Shown: piece by piece, positions 19,962 through 32,654 of the stretch | Layout: each line of letters starts with the position of its first letter | Position numbering within the stretch: position 1 is the stretch's first letter | Assembly: GCA_964517365.1 (NCBI GenBank) | Contig: CAZFEP010000001.1 | Location: 17,476-50,530 of the forward strand | Source: an uncultured Thiotrichales bacterium | GTDB lineage: Bacteria; Pseudomonadota; Gammaproteobacteria; UBA4575 | Direction of reading: 5' to 3' | DNA length: 33,055 nucleotides | Made by a program: the position numbers and the translations under genes | Notes under the pieces: generated by a model | What the model was told of the DNA's origin: nothing | The model's database searches: none | What the model saw: the letters and a program-made list of their open reading frames with translations, nothing else

Positions 19962-20306
19962 GTTTTGTATTCAATACCTGGTTTATGTAACTAAGTTTAA
20001 TTGAGCTGGCTGGTATACTGTCTCTATTATATTTAATGGCTTAATTACTAGACTGCAAGATATCGTTCTTGGTGAAGAAAATCTAATGTAACTAGTATAT
20101 TTAGGGCCCTGTTTCGCTTATCGGTACTAAATATCCGATAATTAGAAGGCTATAACTTATTGTTTTGAAAGGTTTTTATATCATACTTTGGTAACTGTAA
20201 CAATTCTGCTTGTGAATTAATAATTGTGCCTTTTAAATCAACAAGCTACAGATCGGCATAGGTTGGACTTATACAGTCGAGCGAGATTAATTAACTATTT
20301 AGAAGA

Positions 20307-21440
20307 ATGAAAACAAAAAAAATTTTAATCATCACTAAAAATCTTCCACCACAAATAGGAGGGATTGAAAGGCTTACAGATAAAACTATTCAGGTTTTAT
20401 CTATACAGTTTCAATGCACAGTAATTGGACCAATGGAGTCAAAAAAGTTTGTTGATAAAAATTGTAAATTTATAGGTTGTGGTTCCAATAATCTTTTCTT
20501 GTTTTTCTTCGAGTGTTTATATAGGTCAGTTACTGCCTCTTTGGGTGAAAAGTTTGATATTTTATATGCACCAAGTGGATTGATGTCACCAATAATTAGA
20601 ATTATTGGTGTATTTACTAAAGCCAAGCGAGTGACTTATATACATGGTCTAGATATTGCTACTAATAATTATATTTATAAAAAGCTTTTCGTTCCAGCAA
20701 TTCTCTCTTCAGATTTAATTATTACAAACAGTAGAAATACATCAAACATAATAAAAGAAAAGAAATATAACAATAAATTAATCATTGTTAACCCGGGTGT
20801 TGAGATACCTGATTTAAGAGATAGCAATGACTCTAGTTTTAAAAGTAACTATTCATTAAATGGGAAAAAAATTCTCCTTACTGTCGGCAGGCTGGTTAAA
20901 CGTAAAGGTGTTGCTGAATTCATCCTGCGGGCTCTTCCCGCTATAGTGGAGAGAAATTCAGACGTTGTTTTTATTGTTATTGGCGAAGAGGCATCGAATG
21001 CGGTAAAAAAAGATTCATCAGTGCGCAACCAGATATTGTCTAGCATAGAAATGGCCAATATGAAAAACCATGTCTTGATGATTGATAGGGTCAGTGATGA
21101 CGACTTGATGTCGGCCTATATGTCTTCAAATTTATTTATCTTTCCATTGATTGAGTCTAAAACAGATATAGAAGGTTTTGGAATGGTAGCTGCTGAGGCA
21201 GGTGCATGTGGCTTAAACACCATTGCGTTTGATGTGGGTGGGGTGGGTGATGCGGTAATAAAAAATAAAACTGGTGTTTTAATACCCCCGGGTGATTATG
21301 TTTTAATGGCTGATAAAATTTCATCTTACCTTGCTTTGGATAATAATTTCATTCACAGAAAAGAGTGTCAAGGCCATGCAAAAATATACTCGTGGGAACG
21401 CTTTTCTGAGCAGGTGTCAAATGTCTTTAATAGTATTTAA
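20307..21440 (+). CDS. GT-B fold glycosyltransferase, family 4-like
   Basis: N-terminal ILIITKNLPPQIGGIERL. The C-terminal retaining-GT4 signature is EGFGMVAAEAGACGLNTIAFDVGGVGDAV (E-x7-E type). 377 aa. Confidence 0.8.
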   Translation: MKTKKILIITKNLPPQIGGIERLTDKTIQVLSIQFQCTVIGPMESKKFVDKNCKFIGCGSNNLFLFFFECLYRSVTASLGEKFDILYAPSGLMSPIIRIIGVFTKAKRVTYIHGLDIATNNYIYKKLFVPAILSSDLIITNSRNTSNIIKEKKYNNKLIIVNPGVEIPDLRDSNDSSFKSNYSLNGKKILLTVGRLVKRKGVAEFILRALPAIVERNSDVVFIVIGEEASNAVKKDSSVRNQILSSIEMANMKNHVLMIDRVSDDDLMSAYMSSNLFIFPLIESKTDIEGFGMVAAEAGACGLNTIAFDVGGVGDAVIKNKTGVLIPPGDYVLMADKISSYLALDNNFIHRKECQGHAKIYSWERFSEQVSNVFNSI

Positions 21441-21461
21441 AAAAAATTGGCAAAATAATCT

Positions 21462-22211
21462 ATGAAACGTACAGCTCAGCTAGGTTACTCAGCTATACAT
21501 AGCGATGTGTATTTTGGACAAGGCAATCGTGAACGAAAAGCACTTACAATAGTGGCTATTTTGCAAGATTATTTAGGAGAAAAGCTCAAACAATCAAACA
21601 TTCTTGATGTTGGTGCATCAACTGGATACATTGATAATGTGCTTGCAGATTTTTCAGCGTCAGTTGAAGGATTGGACATCGATGAAGGTGCAATAAATTT
21701 CGCAAATGAAACTTTTAATAAGAAAAATTTAACTTTCAAGTCTAGCGATGCATTAGACCTGAACTACGAGGATGATAGTTTTGATGTAATCATCTGTAAC
21801 CATGTTTACGAGCATGTTATTGATGATAAAGTATTAATGTCCGAGATTTATCGAGTGCTAAAAAAAAGTGGTGTTTGTTTTTTTACTGCAGGGAATCGTA
21901 ACTGTTTAGTGGAGCCGCATTATAAGCTGCCATTATTGTCGGTGATGCCTAGGGCTTTGGCGCATATATATATGCGAATAATGAAAAAAGGAAGCTTTTA
22001 TCACGAAAAGCACCGAAGTTACTGGGGCTTGAGGAAGCTTGTGAAAGATTTTAGTTACAAAGATTACACTAAAGAAATTGTATCGAAACCTCAGATATAT
22101 AAGGTGGATTATATGATTAGGCAAGGGTCATTTAAGCAGAGGGTTGCAATTTCAATATGCAAGTATTTTTTTTGGTTATGTCCTACTTATGTATGGGTGT
22201 TAAAGAAATAA
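21462..22211 (+). CDS. class I SAM-dependent methyltransferase
   Basis: Motif I ILDVGASTGY, the acidic post-I residue in GLDIDE, and motif II/III FDVIICNHVYEHV. 249 aa, 21 bp after the preceding GT. Confidence 0.75.
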   Translation: MKRTAQLGYSAIHSDVYFGQGNRERKALTIVAILQDYLGEKLKQSNILDVGASTGYIDNVLADFSASVEGLDIDEGAINFANETFNKKNLTFKSSDALDLNYEDDSFDVIICNHVYEHVIDDKVLMSEIYRVLKKSGVCFFTAGNRNCLVEPHYKLPLLSVMPRALAHIYMRIMKKGSFYHEKHRSYWGLRKLVKDFSYKDYTKEIVSKPQIYKVDYMIRQGSFKQRVAISICKYFFWLCPTYVWVLKK

Positions 22212-22226
22212 TCTGAGTTATAAGTA

Positions 22227-30586: not shown

Positions 30587-32554
30587 CTATTGTAGTCGTT
30601 GTTTAAAGTAAGTTAAATCTTTTTCGTGTAAGCCTAAGGTATCATCCTGTTCAATAGCAGTGATTAATATTTTTGCATCCTCATATTTTTTCATCGCAAT
30701 CAATAGAGTTACTAAATTAATTTTATATTGAAGTATATTAGGGGATATGCTTATAGCATTATTCATCAAAACATAAGCTTTTTCATAATCACCTAATACA
30801 TCTGCCGTGAATTTTGCATATAAGGTAAGTAAATCAGATTTATTCTTGTTGGGATATTTGTGTGGATTAGATAAAGCCGCAATGTAAAATTCATTCATCT
30901 GATTTTTATTGATATTGCATGATGTTGTAAGCGTACATTTATTAAGTTCACTAAGGCTATTAATAGTGATGTGTGTGATCGGAAATTCTTTTAATTTCCT
31001 TGTTGTACTGTCAATCCAGGAATTTTTATTCTTTCCCTTTATTAGGCTTGTGAATAATATAGCAGAGGTTTCACCAATGATCTCTTGCGGCATATAGGTG
31101 GCTGATCTTTCGAATAATGAGATAGCTTTTTCTTTTTCATTCATAATCTCTTTGAGCGTTAAATTCGCATACACTTTAGCTAATGCAAATGTTGCTCTCG
31201 CTGATGTAGGGTGATGACTGGCTTCATGATAAGCAAAAGATGCATCACTGCTCCACTGTTGTGATCTAATGAAAGTTGAAAATGAAATGCATAAAACCCA
31301 AACTATCAAGATAGAATAGATTAATTTTGTATTAGCTTTATTTTGAGCAAGCGTAAATATGCTTGCAAATATACCAAATATAACACCATAGCTCGCTAAA
31401 TAATTTCTATGCTCATAGATGAGTTCAAGAGGAAATACTGTAGATTCAAGTATGTGTGATGCAAGAAAAAATAATATTGAGAATGAAATGAAAGGATAAG
31501 CTCGGCGAAAATAAAGTGCAATCATTGCTAAACATGACACACATACTATAGAAATTAGCGTTGTAATCGGTTGCAGTATTGAGTGTGAAATCTGGATATC
31601 GTCATGATAGAGGCCGAGGCTAGAAATATTTGGCACGATTATCCAAGTTAAATAATGGAAGAGAATTCTAGGTTCGGTTAGCAATCTTTCAGTCAAAGTA
31701 AAAAATCTATGATTATACCCGTTAAGAATATAACCAGGTTCGGTAATAAAATATAAAAAAACAACTATAATTGGTGATGCGGTTGCCAGTATAAATACAT
31801 ATCGAAAAACTTTAGTGGACAAGATGTTTTTTGAATACAAATGAAATAAGCAAAATTCTATGCATATAACATAAAAGATATTTAGAATAGCGGTTTCTTT
31901 ACAAAATAATGCAATAATAAAAAATATACCGCTGAATACAATCGGTAATGCAAAGAAATCTTTATCAAACATCATTGATCTTCTGGCAACAACGTAGCAG
32001 CATAAGCCCGCCACACTAAATAGCGAAGCTAAGCTCGTCATGCGTTGAATGATATAAAGCACACCAGTTAAATTGATCGGGGATACTAACCACGCAGTAG
32101 CCACCAATAGCGATATATAGTATTTGTTGAGTAGTTTTGTGTCTTTTCTTGTGAGTTTTTCGTAGCTATCAAGCAGCAGATAGGTTAGTAAAAATAATAG
32201 AATTCCAGTTATCAGGTGAATAATTAAGTTTACTAGTTTATAGGTAAACGGATTAAACTCGGAATAGTAATAATTGATGGCGAAGCTAAACATACTGACT
32301 GGACGTTTGAGCGGCCCAGACTCTGAGGATAGGCTCGCACTTAGTATTGATTTTAAATCTAACGAATCAATTTTCAGTTGATCGTTATCCAGGAGGTTGG
32401 GTATATCGTCATGCAGGAAATCACCTTGTAACCCAGGTAGATAAATCATCACACACAAGATCAGTGAACAAGCACTCAGGATAACTCTCGTAGAGTGCGC
32501 ACTCGGTGACAAGAGTGATTGTATCTTTATCATTTTCGATGGAAAGTTTAGCAA
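30587..32554 (-). CDS. GT-C fold membrane glycosyltransferase (TMTC/PMT_2-like) with a C-terminal TPR domain; candidate pilin/protein O-glycosyltransferase
   Basis: 655 aa. The N-terminal ~430 aa are polytopic, with roughly 11-13 hydrophobic segments by eye. The first extracytoplasmic loop carries GDFLHDDIPNLLDN (D49 D50), followed by KRPVSMFSFAINYY...YKLVNLIIHL, matching the remembered F-x-DD..N and RP...F..N...H signatures of TMTC-like GT-C enzymes. The C-terminal ~200 aa have TPR-like repeats (LGDYEKAYVLMNNAISISP, MKKYEDAKILITAIEQ). The start is either the TTG at 32554 or the ATG at 32533. Confidence 0.75.
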   Translation of the reverse strand: MLNFPSKMIKIQSLLSPSAHSTRVILSACSLILCVMIYLPGLQGDFLHDDIPNLLDNDQLKIDSLDLKSILSASLSSESGPLKRPVSMFSFAINYYYSEFNPFTYKLVNLIIHLITGILLFLLTYLLLDSYEKLTRKDTKLLNKYYISLLVATAWLVSPINLTGVLYIIQRMTSLASLFSVAGLCCYVVARRSMMFDKDFFALPIVFSGIFFIIALFCKETAILNIFYVICIEFCLFHLYSKNILSTKVFRYVFILATASPIIVVFLYFITEPGYILNGYNHRFFTLTERLLTEPRILFHYLTWIIVPNISSLGLYHDDIQISHSILQPITTLISIVCVSCLAMIALYFRRAYPFISFSILFFLASHILESTVFPLELIYEHRNYLASYGVIFGIFASIFTLAQNKANTKLIYSILIVWVLCISFSTFIRSQQWSSDASFAYHEASHHPTSARATFALAKVYANLTLKEIMNEKEKAISLFERSATYMPQEIIGETSAILFTSLIKGKNKNSWIDSTTRKLKEFPITHITINSLSELNKCTLTTSCNINKNQMNEFYIAALSNPHKYPNKNKSDLLTLYAKFTADVLGDYEKAYVLMNNAISISPNILQYKINLVTLLIAMKKYEDAKILITAIEQDDTLGLHEKDLTYFKQRLQ

Positions 32555-32601
32555 TATGTGAAGCGGTTTATCACTATTGTAATATTAAAACCTGTGTGCA
32601 T

Positions 32602-32634
32602 AAAAAAAGCGCCTTGCAGATGCAAGGCGCTTTT
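32602..32634 (-). terminator. rho-independent terminator downstream of pilA (structurally bidirectional)
   Basis: Perfect inverted repeat GCGCCTTGCA (32609-32618) / TGCAAGGCGC (32621-32630), GC-rich. It is flanked by A7 (32602-32608) and T4 (32631-32634). On the pilA (minus) transcript the hairpin is followed by seven U. It lies 20 nt after the pilA stop. Confidence 0.85.
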
Positions 32635-32654
32635 AATAGTCTTAGACTAAAGTA

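Follow-up and report, generated by a model that had tools for sequence, protein, structure and literature searches.

What is a block of sugar-pathway genes doing between the gene for a major pilin and those for its assembly machinery, and which molecule do its products modify? The question is raised by a stretch of 33,055 nucleotides from an uncultured Thiotrichales bacterium (the window), in which eleven sugar-pathway ORFs, lying on both strands (20307-32554) and in a core chromosomal setting, separate pilA from pilB, pilC and pilD. This layout had been described in an earlier, sequence-only reading, and profile matches agree with it. The eleven ORFs encode three GT4 glycosyltransferases, two SAM methyltransferases, a Wzx flippase, a sulfotransferase-like protein, a DegT aminotransferase, a GT2, a GT-C/TPR enzyme, and a cupin-like protein; no further ORF of at least 40 aa was found in the gaps between them, and the G+C content of the island is 0.354 vs 0.408 for the flank (1-19961). 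The interval is two-layered. A conserved layer (29647-33055) consists of pilA, a terminator, and the GT-C and GT2 genes, and a variable layer of 9.7 kb (19962-29646) holds nine cargo genes, mostly on the strand opposite to that of the pilA-GT-C-GT2 module. The idea that all eleven genes arrived as one insert thus has to be given up: GT-C and GT2 belong to the conserved module, and the variable cargo amounts to nine genes. We consider it probable that the interval serves pilin O-glycosylation, as an island of the TfpW/TMTC kind fed by an undecaprenyl-phosphate-linked donor.

The pilA gene (32655..33055, minus strand; Pfam Pilin, 1.4e-22), which runs off the edge of the window at its 5' end, encodes a major type IVa pilin with an N-terminal helix (20 residues, letters not shown) and a C-terminal Cys pair. 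PilA is 75-80% identical to the pilins found at the same position in loci L001, L085, and L086, and is the presumed acceptor protein. Between pilA and the GT-C gene, a strong intrinsic terminator can be read from the sequence (32602..32630, minus strand), with a 9-bp GC-rich stem, a 4-nt loop, and a T7 tail, the hairpin matching that of L001 at 93.5%. Terminators that separate pilA from accessory genes have been reported as a common means of setting accessory-gene dosage (PMC11841053). The right-hand anchor of the island, also conserved, is formed by pilB (18243-19961; T2SSE, 8e-154), pilC (17012-18238; T2SSF, 4e-68), and pilD (16067-16951; Peptidase_A24), all on the minus strand (16067..19961) and followed by coaE and zapD; DNA similarity to relatives starts exactly at the pilB start codon.

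Next in the conserved layer is a predicted membrane glycosyltransferase of the GT-C fold, whose C-terminal part is a TPR domain predicted to be periplasmic (30587..32554, minus strand; TPR_19 and fold match), TfpW-like and TMTC-like in its organization, encoded on the same strand as pilA, 100 bp downstream and beyond the terminator. The ORF spans 655 aa, with a likely start at the ATG at 32533, and its database copy, P0001, has 648 aa. The protein carries 11 hydrophobic (TM) segments, and charge bias places its N-terminus inside. Its membrane domain is covered by no Pfam or NCBIfam model, and NCBI labels family members as ‘hypothetical’ or ‘TPR protein’. The AF2 model (pLDDT 88.9) provides the fold: in a Foldseek comparison of the membrane domain with the PDB, four STT3 chains and PglB make up the top five matches, with Pmt1-Pmt2 at rank 10. 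These matches have probabilities of 0.98-1.0, TMq of 0.37-0.49, and weak E-values (0.03-0.25), while non-GT-C structures ranked among them have probabilities of 0.25 or less. Residues D49 D50, R84 P85, K219 E220, H317 D318 D319, and E381 R383 Y385 are invariant in the family, within the motifs DD (loop 1), RP..F..N, KE(T/N), HDD, and ExRxY, and they occupy almost the same positions as motifs M1, M2, M4, M5, and M7 of TMTC enzymes, which bind Dol-P-Man and metal (PMC7801869). The likeness to TfpW, without which P. aeruginosa does not glycosylate its pilin (bioRxiv 10.1101/2020.04.19.049825), is one of placement and architecture; the TfpW motif YX6PFX7P is missing from all 240 family members examined.

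Directly downstream lies the GT2 gene (29647..30519, minus strand; Pfam Glycos_transf_2, 3e-29), whose product is a predicted polyprenyl-phosphate sugar synthase of the GtrB/ArnC/DPM1-like type. Two C-terminal hydrophobic segments are seen in its hydropathy profile, all seven of its matches to PDB sequences are polyprenyl-phosphate glycosyltransferases (DPMS, ArnC, or GtrB), and among NCBIfam models it scores best against AglJ, dolichyl-P hexose transferase, PpgS, PgfS, and ArnC.

How general is this module? The GT-C family is encoded in at least 599 species genomes, and its neighborhood was sampled in approximately 80 of these, with linkage counted over 75 loci. A pilin gene lies directly upstream of GT-C in 50 of the 75 and one gene further off in 6 more, leaving about a quarter without an adjacent pilin as called by a crude gene caller; GT2 is the next gene downstream in 39 loci and is found no more than 8 genes away in another 14, and the copies directly after GT-C are 52-83% identical to the one described here. 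The order pilS-pilR-pilA-GT-C-GT2 recurs in Gamma- and Betaproteobacteria, and pilin adjacency is kept whatever the position or orientation of pilB, which is divergent in L026 and L080. The gene directly after pilA thus encodes a GT-C/TPR enzyme in the position and with the architecture of TfpW, from a family tied to pilin genes across this sample. The earlier view that it is unusual to find a multi-enzyme line at such a site does not hold, given this distribution and the sixteen other complete pilA-to-pilB islands (2.5-9.6 kb) present among the sampled loci. Such islands are common, and are unusual only against the published record, in which our search found no paper describing them.

This linkage also bears on the breadth of the enzyme’s substrates. 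It could be argued that the GT-C/TPR protein is a general periplasmic protein O-glycosyltransferase acting on minor pilins, lipoproteins, and other envelope proteins, its linkage to pilA reflecting co-regulation rather than specificity. PglL-type enzymes of Neisseria and Acinetobacter are indeed general, TMTC and PMT enzymes act on several substrates, and the two or three tandem GT-C paralogues present in 31 of 80 loci might split substrates between them. However, the gene sits tightly beside that of the major pilin, with orientation preserved, much as those of the pilin-dedicated TfpO and TfpW do, and PilA and GT-C identities co-vary more with each other than either does with PilB, as in L003 (PilA 59, GT-C 38, PilB 70) and L019 (PilA 42, GT-C 33, PilB 80). 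We therefore regard a general transferase as quite improbable.

The nine cargo genes suggest the nature of the sugar. A DegT-family sugar aminotransferase (27241..28362, plus strand; Pfam, 4e-116) is nearest to GDP-perosamine synthase (PDB 3bn1, perosamine synthetase, 4e-92) and scores 345 bits, under the cut-off of 420, against a LegC-family model. Next to it on the same strand lie a SAM methyltransferase (26482..27237, plus; PDB 6m83, 3pfg, and 3bxo, E 3e-18 to 2e-16) nearest to the sugar N,N-dimethyltransferases TylM1 and DesVI, and a candidate small cupin-like protein (26021..26476, plus), for which a sub-threshold WbuC match (24.7 bits, cut-off 42) and a G-x5-HxH-x5-E motif read by eye, with no Pfam or PDB match, make this the weakest of the eleven identifications. 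No 4,6-dehydratase for this amino-sugar branch is present in the island. Three GT4 enzymes are encoded at 28381..29571 (plus; Glycos_transf_1, 7e-17), 22227..23288 (minus; Glycos_transf_1, 3e-12, and Glyco_trans_4_4, 3e-09), and 20307..21440 (plus; Glycos_transf_1, 1.4e-30), together with a second SAM methyltransferase (21462..22211, plus; Methyltransf_11, 1.8e-21; 52-54% homologues in the L012 and L062 islands), a Wzx/MOP-family flippase (23645..24994, plus; Polysacc_synt, 1.7e-30, and MatE, 3.6e-11), and a possible sulfotransferase-like protein (25063..25923, plus; Sulfotransfer_1, 6.6e-07, 29.4 bits, cut-off 22), which matches one PDB sulfotransferase (3rnl, 4.7e-05) and has no homologue among the fetched loci. 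The proposal that every ORF bears a carbohydrate signature is upheld for most, and is weak for the sulfotransferase-like and cupin-like proteins.

Comparison with relatives shows how readily this layer turns over, in line with the expectation that the pilA-pilB interval varies. None of the nine genes has a DNA or protein match in L001, L082, L083, or L084, where other sugar genes fill the slot, despite PilB identities of 79-92% where comparable (L084 ends before pilB); this is the pattern expected of a surface-variation island. Even the closest relative, L086 (GT-C 74%, PilA 80%), differs in gene order and carries another gene directly after GT2, namely a 38% homologue of Wzx. On the other hand, L005, with a GT-C identity of no more than 37%, has its own pilA-GT-C-GT2 island with homologues of the cupin (70%), lying alongside those of DegT (63%) and the N-methyltransferase (42%), as well as of two GT4s (38% to 28381..29571 and 41% to 22227..23288), and it also holds a Wzx, which indicates that the cargo belongs with the module.

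Low G+C and variable content are also features of O-antigen loci, and a synthase, a flippase, and a GT-C enzyme constitute the classic three-component layout of glycan modification (PMC11127046). One could thus envisage an ordinary surface polysaccharide locus (O-antigen, capsule, or EPS side-chain modification) lying beside pilA by chance, whose GT-C enzyme decorates a glycan, as GtrC does, and not pilin. We find this very improbable: the pilin adjacency spans dozens of distant genomes, and the TPR, a protein-binding module, is present in the protein-modifying TMTC and TfpW, while GtrC-type enzymes are not known to carry such a domain. Moreover, the locus has no Wzy polymerase, Wzz chain-length regulator, or ABC exporter, and Pfam and NCBIfam profile searches detected no initiating phosphotransferase or PglL/TfpO-type transferase in the window, which makes it unlike an O-antigen or capsule cluster.

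A further alternative, which we hold to be unlikely, is that the interval houses two neighboring systems: the module places a single sugar, drawn from Und-P-sugar, on pilin, and the cargo builds a separate Und-PP-linked oligosaccharide, begun by a housekeeping WecA/WbaP-type enzyme and passed on by a PglL/TfpO-type transferase encoded elsewhere or by an LPS ligase. GT-C enzymes of the PMT, TMTC, ArnT, and Gtr types normally move single sugars from monophosphate carriers (PMC7801869; PMC11127046), GT4 enzymes plus Wzx are the usual kit for synthesis of Und-PP-linked units, and most of the cargo is opposite in strand to the module. Against this stand the recurrence of the same cargo block in the distant L005 island, the confinement of cargo between module and pilB in all complete islands found, and the many loci in which a GT4 gene directly follows GT2 (the ‘PC24’ pattern). 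In addition, the 17 islands contain GT4s, GT2s, methyltransferases, and about one MOP or LPG_synthase_TM flippase each, but no initiating phosphoglycosyltransferase, Wzy, Wzz, or Wzy_C-type ligase among their 25 commonest families.

Pilin glycosylation as the function of the island is therefore supported in part as originally proposed, TfpW-like placement, pilin linkage, and cargo turnover speaking for it, while rarity and single insertion have fallen away. In the mechanism that we favor, some transcription would read through the terminator after pilA, and GT2, working on the cytoplasmic side of the membrane, would transfer a sugar from a nucleotide donor to undecaprenyl phosphate. The aminotransferase, N-methyltransferase, and cupin could generate an N-methylated amino-deoxy sugar, and the three GT4s, the second methyltransferase, and the sulfotransferase-like protein may lengthen or modify the lipid-linked glycan while it is still in the cytoplasm. 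Since a cytoplasmic GT4 has no means of lengthening a sugar once it sits on pilin in the periplasm, such a role requires that a lipid-linked oligosaccharide be transferred, and we know of no bacterial GT-C of this type that transfers an oligosaccharide from a monophosphate carrier. The island’s Wzx would flip the lipid-linked sugar to the periplasm, where GT-C, gripping pilin via its TPR domain, would attach it to Ser/Thr of PilA before or during pilus assembly. The pilus is most likely coated with a strain-specific sugar. Recombination in the conserved flanks, formed by pilA-GT-C-GT2 and by pilB, may swap the variable layer between lineages, so that pilus surface chemistry would differ among them, with evasion of phages or predators, or adhesion, as possible benefits. 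The proposed GT2 plus GT-C route would parallel that of DPM1 with TMTC or PMT enzymes in eukaryotes, and that of TfpW in P. aeruginosa.

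Core chromosome occupies the left 14.6 kb of the window, with murC, murB, ddl, ftsQ, ftsA, ftsZ, lpxC, dciA, an M23 peptidase gene and argJ, as well as a 906-aa ORF (9583-12303), which to judge by size and position may be secA, and a NUDIX-ThiE fusion (13641-14609) that joins a NUDIX (MutT-like) domain to a thiamine-phosphate synthase (TMP-TENI) domain. The DciA-family gene (replicative helicase operator; 7885-8322, minus strand) lies between lpxC and the M23 peptidase gene, with neighbours on the opposite strand. To the right of this block, zapD, coaE, pilD (16067-16951), pilC (17012-18238) and pilB (18243-19961) are all encoded on the minus strand, as is pilA, which runs from 32655 to the window end and whose 5' part lies beyond the edge (Pfam Pilin, 1.4e-22). 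The interval between pilB and pilA holds eleven ORFs, encoding three GT4 glycosyltransferases, two SAM methyltransferases, a Wzx flippase, a DegT aminotransferase, a GT2 enzyme, a multi-pass membrane protein of 655 aa that ends in a TPR domain, a weak sulfotransferase-like protein, and a small cupin-like protein recognised on sub-threshold evidence only. The gaps between them contain no further ORF of 40 aa or more, and no GtrA-like small ORF was found in the island. The G+C content of 19962-32654 is 0.354, against 0.408 on the left side; gene by gene, all island genes fall at 0.32-0.40 and pilBCD at 0.41-0.42. The presence of eleven sugar-pathway ORFs between pilA and pilBCD, proposed by the sequence-only reading, is thus confirmed by ORF, domain and G+C data.

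The multi-pass membrane protein (30587-32554, minus strand; GT-C below) is encoded 100 bp past pilA on the same strand. Its start at TTG 32554 gives 655 aa, and the database copy of the protein (648 aa) corresponds to ATG 32533. More than 2,500 relatives of about 650 aa are present in databases, and those that are named at all are called "hypothetical", "TPR repeat protein" or, by JGI, "protein O-mannosyl-transferase". The only Pfam or NCBIfam match is TPR_19 (Pfam at E <= 0.01), with no match to DUF1736 or PMT, and sequence and profile searches of the PDB returned TPR proteins only. Hydropathy reveals 11 membrane segments, with K/R-rich loops that alternate; this charge bias alone suggests a cytoplasmic N-terminus, with loops 43-109 and 272-329 and the TPR domain (approximately 437-655, from TPR_19 and TPR fold matches) facing the periplasm.

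The nature of the membrane domain becomes apparent from structure prediction. The AlphaFold2 model has a mean pLDDT of 88.9 over its full length and 81.2 over residues 1-440; a fold search with the full-length model finds TPR proteins only, and a GT-C fold is visible only with the truncated membrane-domain model. For residues 1-440, the five best PDB folds are STT3 (6ezn_F, 6s7t_A, 8b6l_I, 8pn9_A) and PglB (3rce_A), and rank 10 is Pmt1-Pmt2 (6p25_B), all of which are protein-glycosylating GT-C enzymes. The matches to these three proteins have probabilities of 0.98-1.0 and query-normalised TM-scores of 0.37-0.49 with weak E values (0.03-0.25), and unrelated transporters and receptors ranked among them have probabilities of 0.25 or less; by these measures, and with that weakness in E, the modelled membrane domain appears to have a GT-C fold. 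Residues D49 and D50 of loop 1 are invariant in family alignments of 26 and of 12 sequences, and the 26 members also share R84 P85 ... F91 ... N94, R171, K219 E220, Y301 ... P308, H317 D318 D319 and E381 H382 R383 N384 Y385.

An intrinsic terminator separates pilA from the GT-C gene (32602-32630, minus strand) and consists of GCGCCTTGC / ATCT / GCAAGGCGC followed by T7; the hairpin is kept in L001, one of the nearest related loci (93.5% over 31 nt). A scan for consensus promoters and terminators returned no more sites than in shuffled sequence and missed this one. Pilin accessory genes are reportedly expressed by read-through at a lower level (PMC11841053), and the position of the terminator fits such expression.

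The neighbouring GT2 gene (29647-30519, minus strand) encodes a probable partner. A PDB search with this protein recovered only polyprenyl-phosphate glycosyltransferases, namely Pyrococcus Dol-P-Man synthase (6e-11), ArnC and GtrB, and its best NCBIfam matches, all below cut-off, are AglJ (111 bits, cut-off 325), dolichyl-phosphate hexose transferase, PpgS, PgfS and ArnC. Two hydrophobic segments at its C-terminus would be compatible with a membrane anchor like that of GtrB-type enzymes (PMC11127046). The island also holds the Wzx/MOP protein, and approximately one flippase-like protein per island was counted in a census of 17 islands.

A pattern scan of one genome per species yielded at least 599 confirmed GT-C relatives, and the best 80 of these loci, from Gamma- and Betaproteobacteria, were compared after their genes had been called by a simple method and all of their proteins clustered. 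Cultured carriers among the 80 include Acinetobacter tianfuensis, Rhodanobacter, Dyella, Frateuria, Fulvimonas, Solimonas, Stenotrophobium, Exilibacterium, Novimethylophilus and Undibacterium. A same-strand pilin gene lies directly upstream of GT-C in 50 of the 75 loci that include an upstream gene, and one gene further in another 6; since a genome has very few pilin genes, such adjacency is far more frequent than chance would give. GT2 follows directly downstream in 39 of 75 and lies within 8 genes in 14 more. The usual order is pilS, pilR, pilA, GT-C (sometimes repeated), GT2, often a GT4, and then variable genes, and it is kept both where pilB lies downstream on the same strand, as in the window, and where it is divergent and upstream, as in Pseudomonas (L026, L080).

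In 31 of the 80 loci, GT-C is present as two or three tandem copies. In many islands these paralogues follow one or two pilin genes (for instance L001, 551-2524 and 2687-4540; L082, 7923-9941 and 10001-11968; L085, 7697-9676 and 10001-11707), the window having a single copy, and they may serve several sugars or several acceptor sites. A further locus, L075 (CAMATU010000021.1), labelled as a Klebsiella pneumoniae MAG, shows pilS-pilR-pilA-GT-C-GT-C with GT2, an arrangement unexpected for Klebsiella that is probably due to a mis-binned contig.

The remaining genes of the island, in contrast to this stable module, turn over between close relatives. The six nearest relatives among the loci retrieved (L001, L082, L083, L084, L085 and L086, with pilB reached in L001, L082 and L083) all carry pilS-pilR-pilA-GT-C(-GT-C)-GT2 and, wherever the retrieved stretch is long enough, continue into as much as about 9 kb of sugar genes. 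Their gene sets are unlike that of the window, and include asparagine-synthase-like amidotransferases, DUF354, pyruvyl transferase, TylF and other methyltransferases, GT4s, and membrane proteins of the MurJ, Wzx or LPG_synthase_TM type. When tblastn was run with the nine window cargo genes against L001, L082, L083 and L084, no convincing homologue was found; the same four loci encode proteins identical to those of the window at 79-92% for PilB where reached, 54-60% for GT2, 48-55% for GT-C and 56-75% for PilA. At the nucleotide level (blastn), similarity to the relatives begins exactly at the pilB start codon (19961/19960) and returns only in GT2, GT-C and pilA, with no match within 19962-29670. 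L086 is closer still, being 74% identical in GT-C, 83% in GT2 and 80% in PilA, yet its gene arrangement differs: a Wzx gene directly follows GT2 on the same strand, and its product is only 38% identical to the window Wzx.

Searches for the hallmarks of an integrative element detected neither a tRNA nor a meaningful flanking repeat, and the ORFs scanned gave no match to a transposase or integrase family, so an origin as such an element is not supported; the simplest explanation would be that cargo is exchanged by recombination in the conserved flanks. Measured between pilB and the end of the GT-C gene nearest to it, the 16 other complete islands span 2.5-9.6 kb, against 10.6 kb in the window. 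The impression that a multi-enzyme assembly line at this position is unusual holds relative to the literature; in nature the arrangement is common.

That the cargo belongs functionally with the module is indicated by a more distant locus. The gammaproteobacterial MAG L005, with only 37% identity to the window in GT-C, has its own pilS-pilR-pilA-GT-C-GT2 island (12833-21793), which encodes homologues of the window cupin (70%), DegT aminotransferase (63%), N-methyltransferase (42%), GT4c (38%) and GT4b (41%), the last two being cargo glycosyltransferases, along with a Wzx-type protein and more methyltransferases. This shared block suggests that cargo modules move between islands. A Pfam census of 109 proteins from the 17 complete islands, covering the 25 commonest of 52 families (the last of them with 3 members), counted about 21 GT4, 20 GT2, 17 SAM methyltransferases, 8 Polysacc_synt, 4 MurJ, 4 LPG_synthase_TM and 4 asparagine synthase proteins. 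No initiating phosphoglycosyltransferase (Bac_transf, Glycos_transf_4), Wzy, Wzz or Wzy_C is among those 25 families, and the eleven ORFs of the window include no initiating phosphoglycosyltransferase, no Wzy/Wzz and no ABC/Wza export component. With these components missing from the eleven ORFs and from the 25 families, the island is unlikely to be an O-antigen or capsule cluster.

The asparagine-synthase-like amidotransferases of the closest relatives (approximately 615-625 aa; L001 8222-10096, L082 18061-19920, L083 14012-15856, L084 5610-7463) often stand beside DUF354 or GT4 genes and possibly amidate a uronic acid. In the window, 26021-28362 holds three tightly packed, co-directional genes for the cupin, a methyltransferase and the aminotransferase. 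Among solved structures, the methyltransferase comes closest to TylM1 and DesVI, both sugar N,N-dimethyltransferases (E about 1e-17), and the aminotransferase is closest to GDP-perosamine synthase (3bn1, 4e-92), a pairing that points to an N-methylated amino-deoxyhexose as the probable product; the 4,6-dehydratase needed for such a sugar is absent from the island. The second methyltransferase and the weak sulfotransferase-like protein would further decorate the glycan. In seven other loci (L011, L023, L042, L052, L059, L063 and L074), five of which have a pilin gene directly upstream, the order GT-C, GT2, GT4 is followed by a dehydratase-like gene, recognised by eye and presumably encoding GDP-mannose 4,6-dehydratase, which hints that GDP-mannose-derived 6-deoxy sugars are common in the pilin glycans of this family.

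Taken as a whole, the island is best read as a pilin O-glycosylation system, a proposal that is well supported by context and biochemically unproven. GT2 would charge undecaprenyl phosphate (Und-P) with a sugar, the lipid-linked glycan would be flipped, Wzx being the candidate flippase, and the GT-C enzyme would move the glycan to PilA by means of its periplasmic DD / KE / ExRxY site and its TPR domain. The scheme could take two forms. In the first, only a monosaccharide would be transferred, as is the case with PMT, TMTC, ArnT and Gtr enzymes. In the second, the three GT4s would lengthen the Und-P-linked sugar in the cytoplasm and GT-C would transfer the oligosaccharide en bloc, which would account both for the association of cytoplasmic GT4s and Wzx with the module and for the failure to detect an initiating phosphotransferase. 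To our knowledge, this second form is without bacterial precedent for GT-C enzymes of this type. TfpW, the pilin arabinosyltransferase of some P. aeruginosa strains, has nevertheless been argued both to polymerise and to transfer oligomers (bioRxiv 10.1101/2020.04.19.049825).

A fuller proposal, to which we give a rather low probability, is that the oligosaccharide is built on undecaprenyl monophosphate, and not on the pyrophosphate, before being moved en bloc to pilin Ser/Thr by a TMTC-like GT-C/TPR enzyme. A GtrB/AglJ-like GT2 would start the glycan, the three GT4s would extend it, methyl, sulfate and N-methylamino decorations would be added in the cytoplasm, and Wzx would flip the product. 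If true, the enzyme would represent a new O-oligosaccharyltransferase class in bacteria, with no relation to PglL, TfpO or TfpM and with a parallel in the archaeal Dol-P-based Agl pathway, and its swappable islands would make up a pilus "serotype" locus that is widespread in Gamma- and Betaproteobacteria.

Type IV pili are major phage receptors and major adhesins, and glycosylation by TfpO or TfpW blocks pilus-specific phages in P. aeruginosa. A search of the literature, most subscription journals lying outside its reach, found only the TfpW work, and nothing on a GtrB-linked, TPR-bearing GT-C beside pilA or on multi-gene glycan islands between pilA and pilB. The arrangement of a pilin gene, an unannotated GT-C/TPR transferase and a lipid-phosphate sugar synthase is far more widespread than the known cases, being present in at least 599 species genomes, and its sugar-gene cassette differs from one close relative to the next, in the manner of O-antigen loci. 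If the pilin O-glycosylation reading holds, many environmental Gamma- and Betaproteobacteria would carry a pilus "serotype" locus that annotation has missed because no Pfam or NCBIfam model covers the transferase, together with a bacterial counterpart of the eukaryotic DPM1-TMTC O-glycosylation route. Several Acinetobacter species (among them A. johnsonii, A. bohemicus and A. towneri), Rhodanobacter and Dyella (D. koreensis) are cultured hosts that are possibly tractable, Exilibacterium tricleocarpae and Novimethylophilus kurashikiensis are further cultured carriers, and the GT-C enzyme might be a new transferase for glycoengineering.

Compared by description and not by sequence, TfpW would be the closest described system. 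It is the pilin D-arabinofuranosyl transferase of P. aeruginosa group IV (Pa5196, PA7; AAM52060.1, 646 aa), is required for pilin glycosylation, and has homologues beside pilA in a few other genera (bioRxiv 10.1101/2020.04.19.049825). Both genes lie immediately downstream of pilA, and each product, at approximately 650 aa, is predicted to cross the membrane 11 times from a cytoplasmic N-terminus, has DD in its first periplasmic loop, and ends in a TPR domain on the periplasmic side. In each case the known or predicted donor is a polyprenyl-monophosphate sugar, with pilin as the acceptor (predicted for the window). The donors differ, however. That of TfpW, polyprenyl-P-D-Araf, is made by a DprE1/DprE2/phosphoribosyltransferase cluster described apart from pilA-tfpW, whereas the window has an adjoining GtrB/DPM1-type GT2, and none of the D-Araf genes (phosphoribosyltransferase, DprE1, DprE2) is present in the window or among the 25 commonest of the 52 families of the 17 islands. 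The companion of tfpW is tfpX, while that of the window gene is 9.7 kb of swappable sugar genes including GT4s and Wzx. The TfpW motif YX6PFX7P of periplasmic loop 4 was found in 0 of 240 family proteins; in its place Y301-X6-P308 is conserved, followed by ..LYHDD, so that only YX6P is kept. TfpW and its named homologues are absent among the matches listed (the best 120 each for the window protein, a Pseudomonas MAG homologue and an Exilibacterium homologue), and neither these matches nor the clusters looked up include proteins from P. aeruginosa, A. venetianus or T. turnerae. By this likeness in description the window enzyme probably works like TfpW, and it is not called a TfpW orthologue.

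Other systems share single features with the island. GtrA/GtrB/GtrC, ArnC/ArnEF/ArnT and the pentofuranose systems of Kelly et al. 2024 combine a lipid-phosphate sugar synthase, a flippase and a GT-C enzyme, a logic that the window would share: its GT2 is homologous to GtrB and ArnC, and its candidate flippase belongs to the MOP superfamily, as in the systems of Kelly et al. These three-component systems decorate glycans or lipid A but not protein, and have no extra cytoplasmic GT4s or sugar-tailoring genes. We know of no GT-C enzyme of this type that bears a TPR domain. TfpO/PilO, TfpM and PglL resemble the proposed system in glycosylating pilin and in drawing glycan diversity from variable gene sets, and tfpO lies directly downstream of pilA; however, they carry a Wzy_C / O-antigen-ligase domain and use Und-PP-linked units started by a phosphoglycosyltransferase. 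Wzy_C has no match in any window or island protein scanned, nor among the 25 commonest of the 52 families in the 17 islands, and the island is not assigned to these systems because it has no such domain. The cyanobacterial pilin glycosyltransferase Ogt was also considered as a relative and rejected, being a soluble GT41 enzyme.

The N-glycosylation pathway of Haloferax volcanii (AglJ, AglG/I/E, AglP, AglR, AglB, AglS/AglD) includes soluble glycosyltransferases, a methyltransferase and a flippase. AglJ, the best NCBIfam match of GT2, starts the glycan on a polyprenol monophosphate, and the island also has further soluble glycosyltransferases, methyltransferases and a Wzx-like flippase, a parts list that would suit a monophosphate-linked oligosaccharide pathway of this kind. 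In contrast to the archaeal pathway, the transferase of the window is not STT3/AglB-like in sequence, and O- rather than N-linkage would apply.

Finally, the eukaryotic O-mannosyltransferases TMTC1-4 (GT-C/PMT clan), which operate with the Dol-P-Man synthase DPM1, possess 11 TM segments and a C-terminal TPR domain facing away from the cytoplasm, as does the window GT-C. Human TMTC1 carries the motifs DD (52-53), SHKSYRP (88-94, continuing to ..F..N at 104), KE(T/Q)xxT (219-224), DW (330) and ERxxY (403-407) (PMC7801869 Table 4), and the KE lysine and a loop-5 arginine of TMTCs bind the phosphate of dolichyl-phosphate-mannose (PMC7801869). Compared by eye with this published table, TMTC1 and the window protein correspond in the kind and order of motifs, and nearly in their positions, at DD (52-53/49-50), RP..F..N (93-104/84-94), KE(T/Q) (219-221/219-221) and ERxxY/ExRxY (403-407/381-385). 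In terms of TMTC motifs M1-M7, M1, M4 and the RP..F..N part of M2 thus stand at near-identical positions, M7 reads ExRxY, M5 (DW) is HDD, only the R of M3 (RxD) is conserved, and M6 (PxxP) was not located. Unlike the TMTCs, the window protein has no DUF1736 match, would use the bacterial carrier undecaprenyl phosphate and a pilin acceptor, and is accompanied by a variable glycan island. The GT2 beside the window GT-C has a Dol-P-Man synthase as its closest relative of solved structure. In motifs and architecture, the window GT-C appears to resemble the eukaryotic TMTCs, and together with its GT2 it would mirror the pair formed by DPM1 and TMTC.
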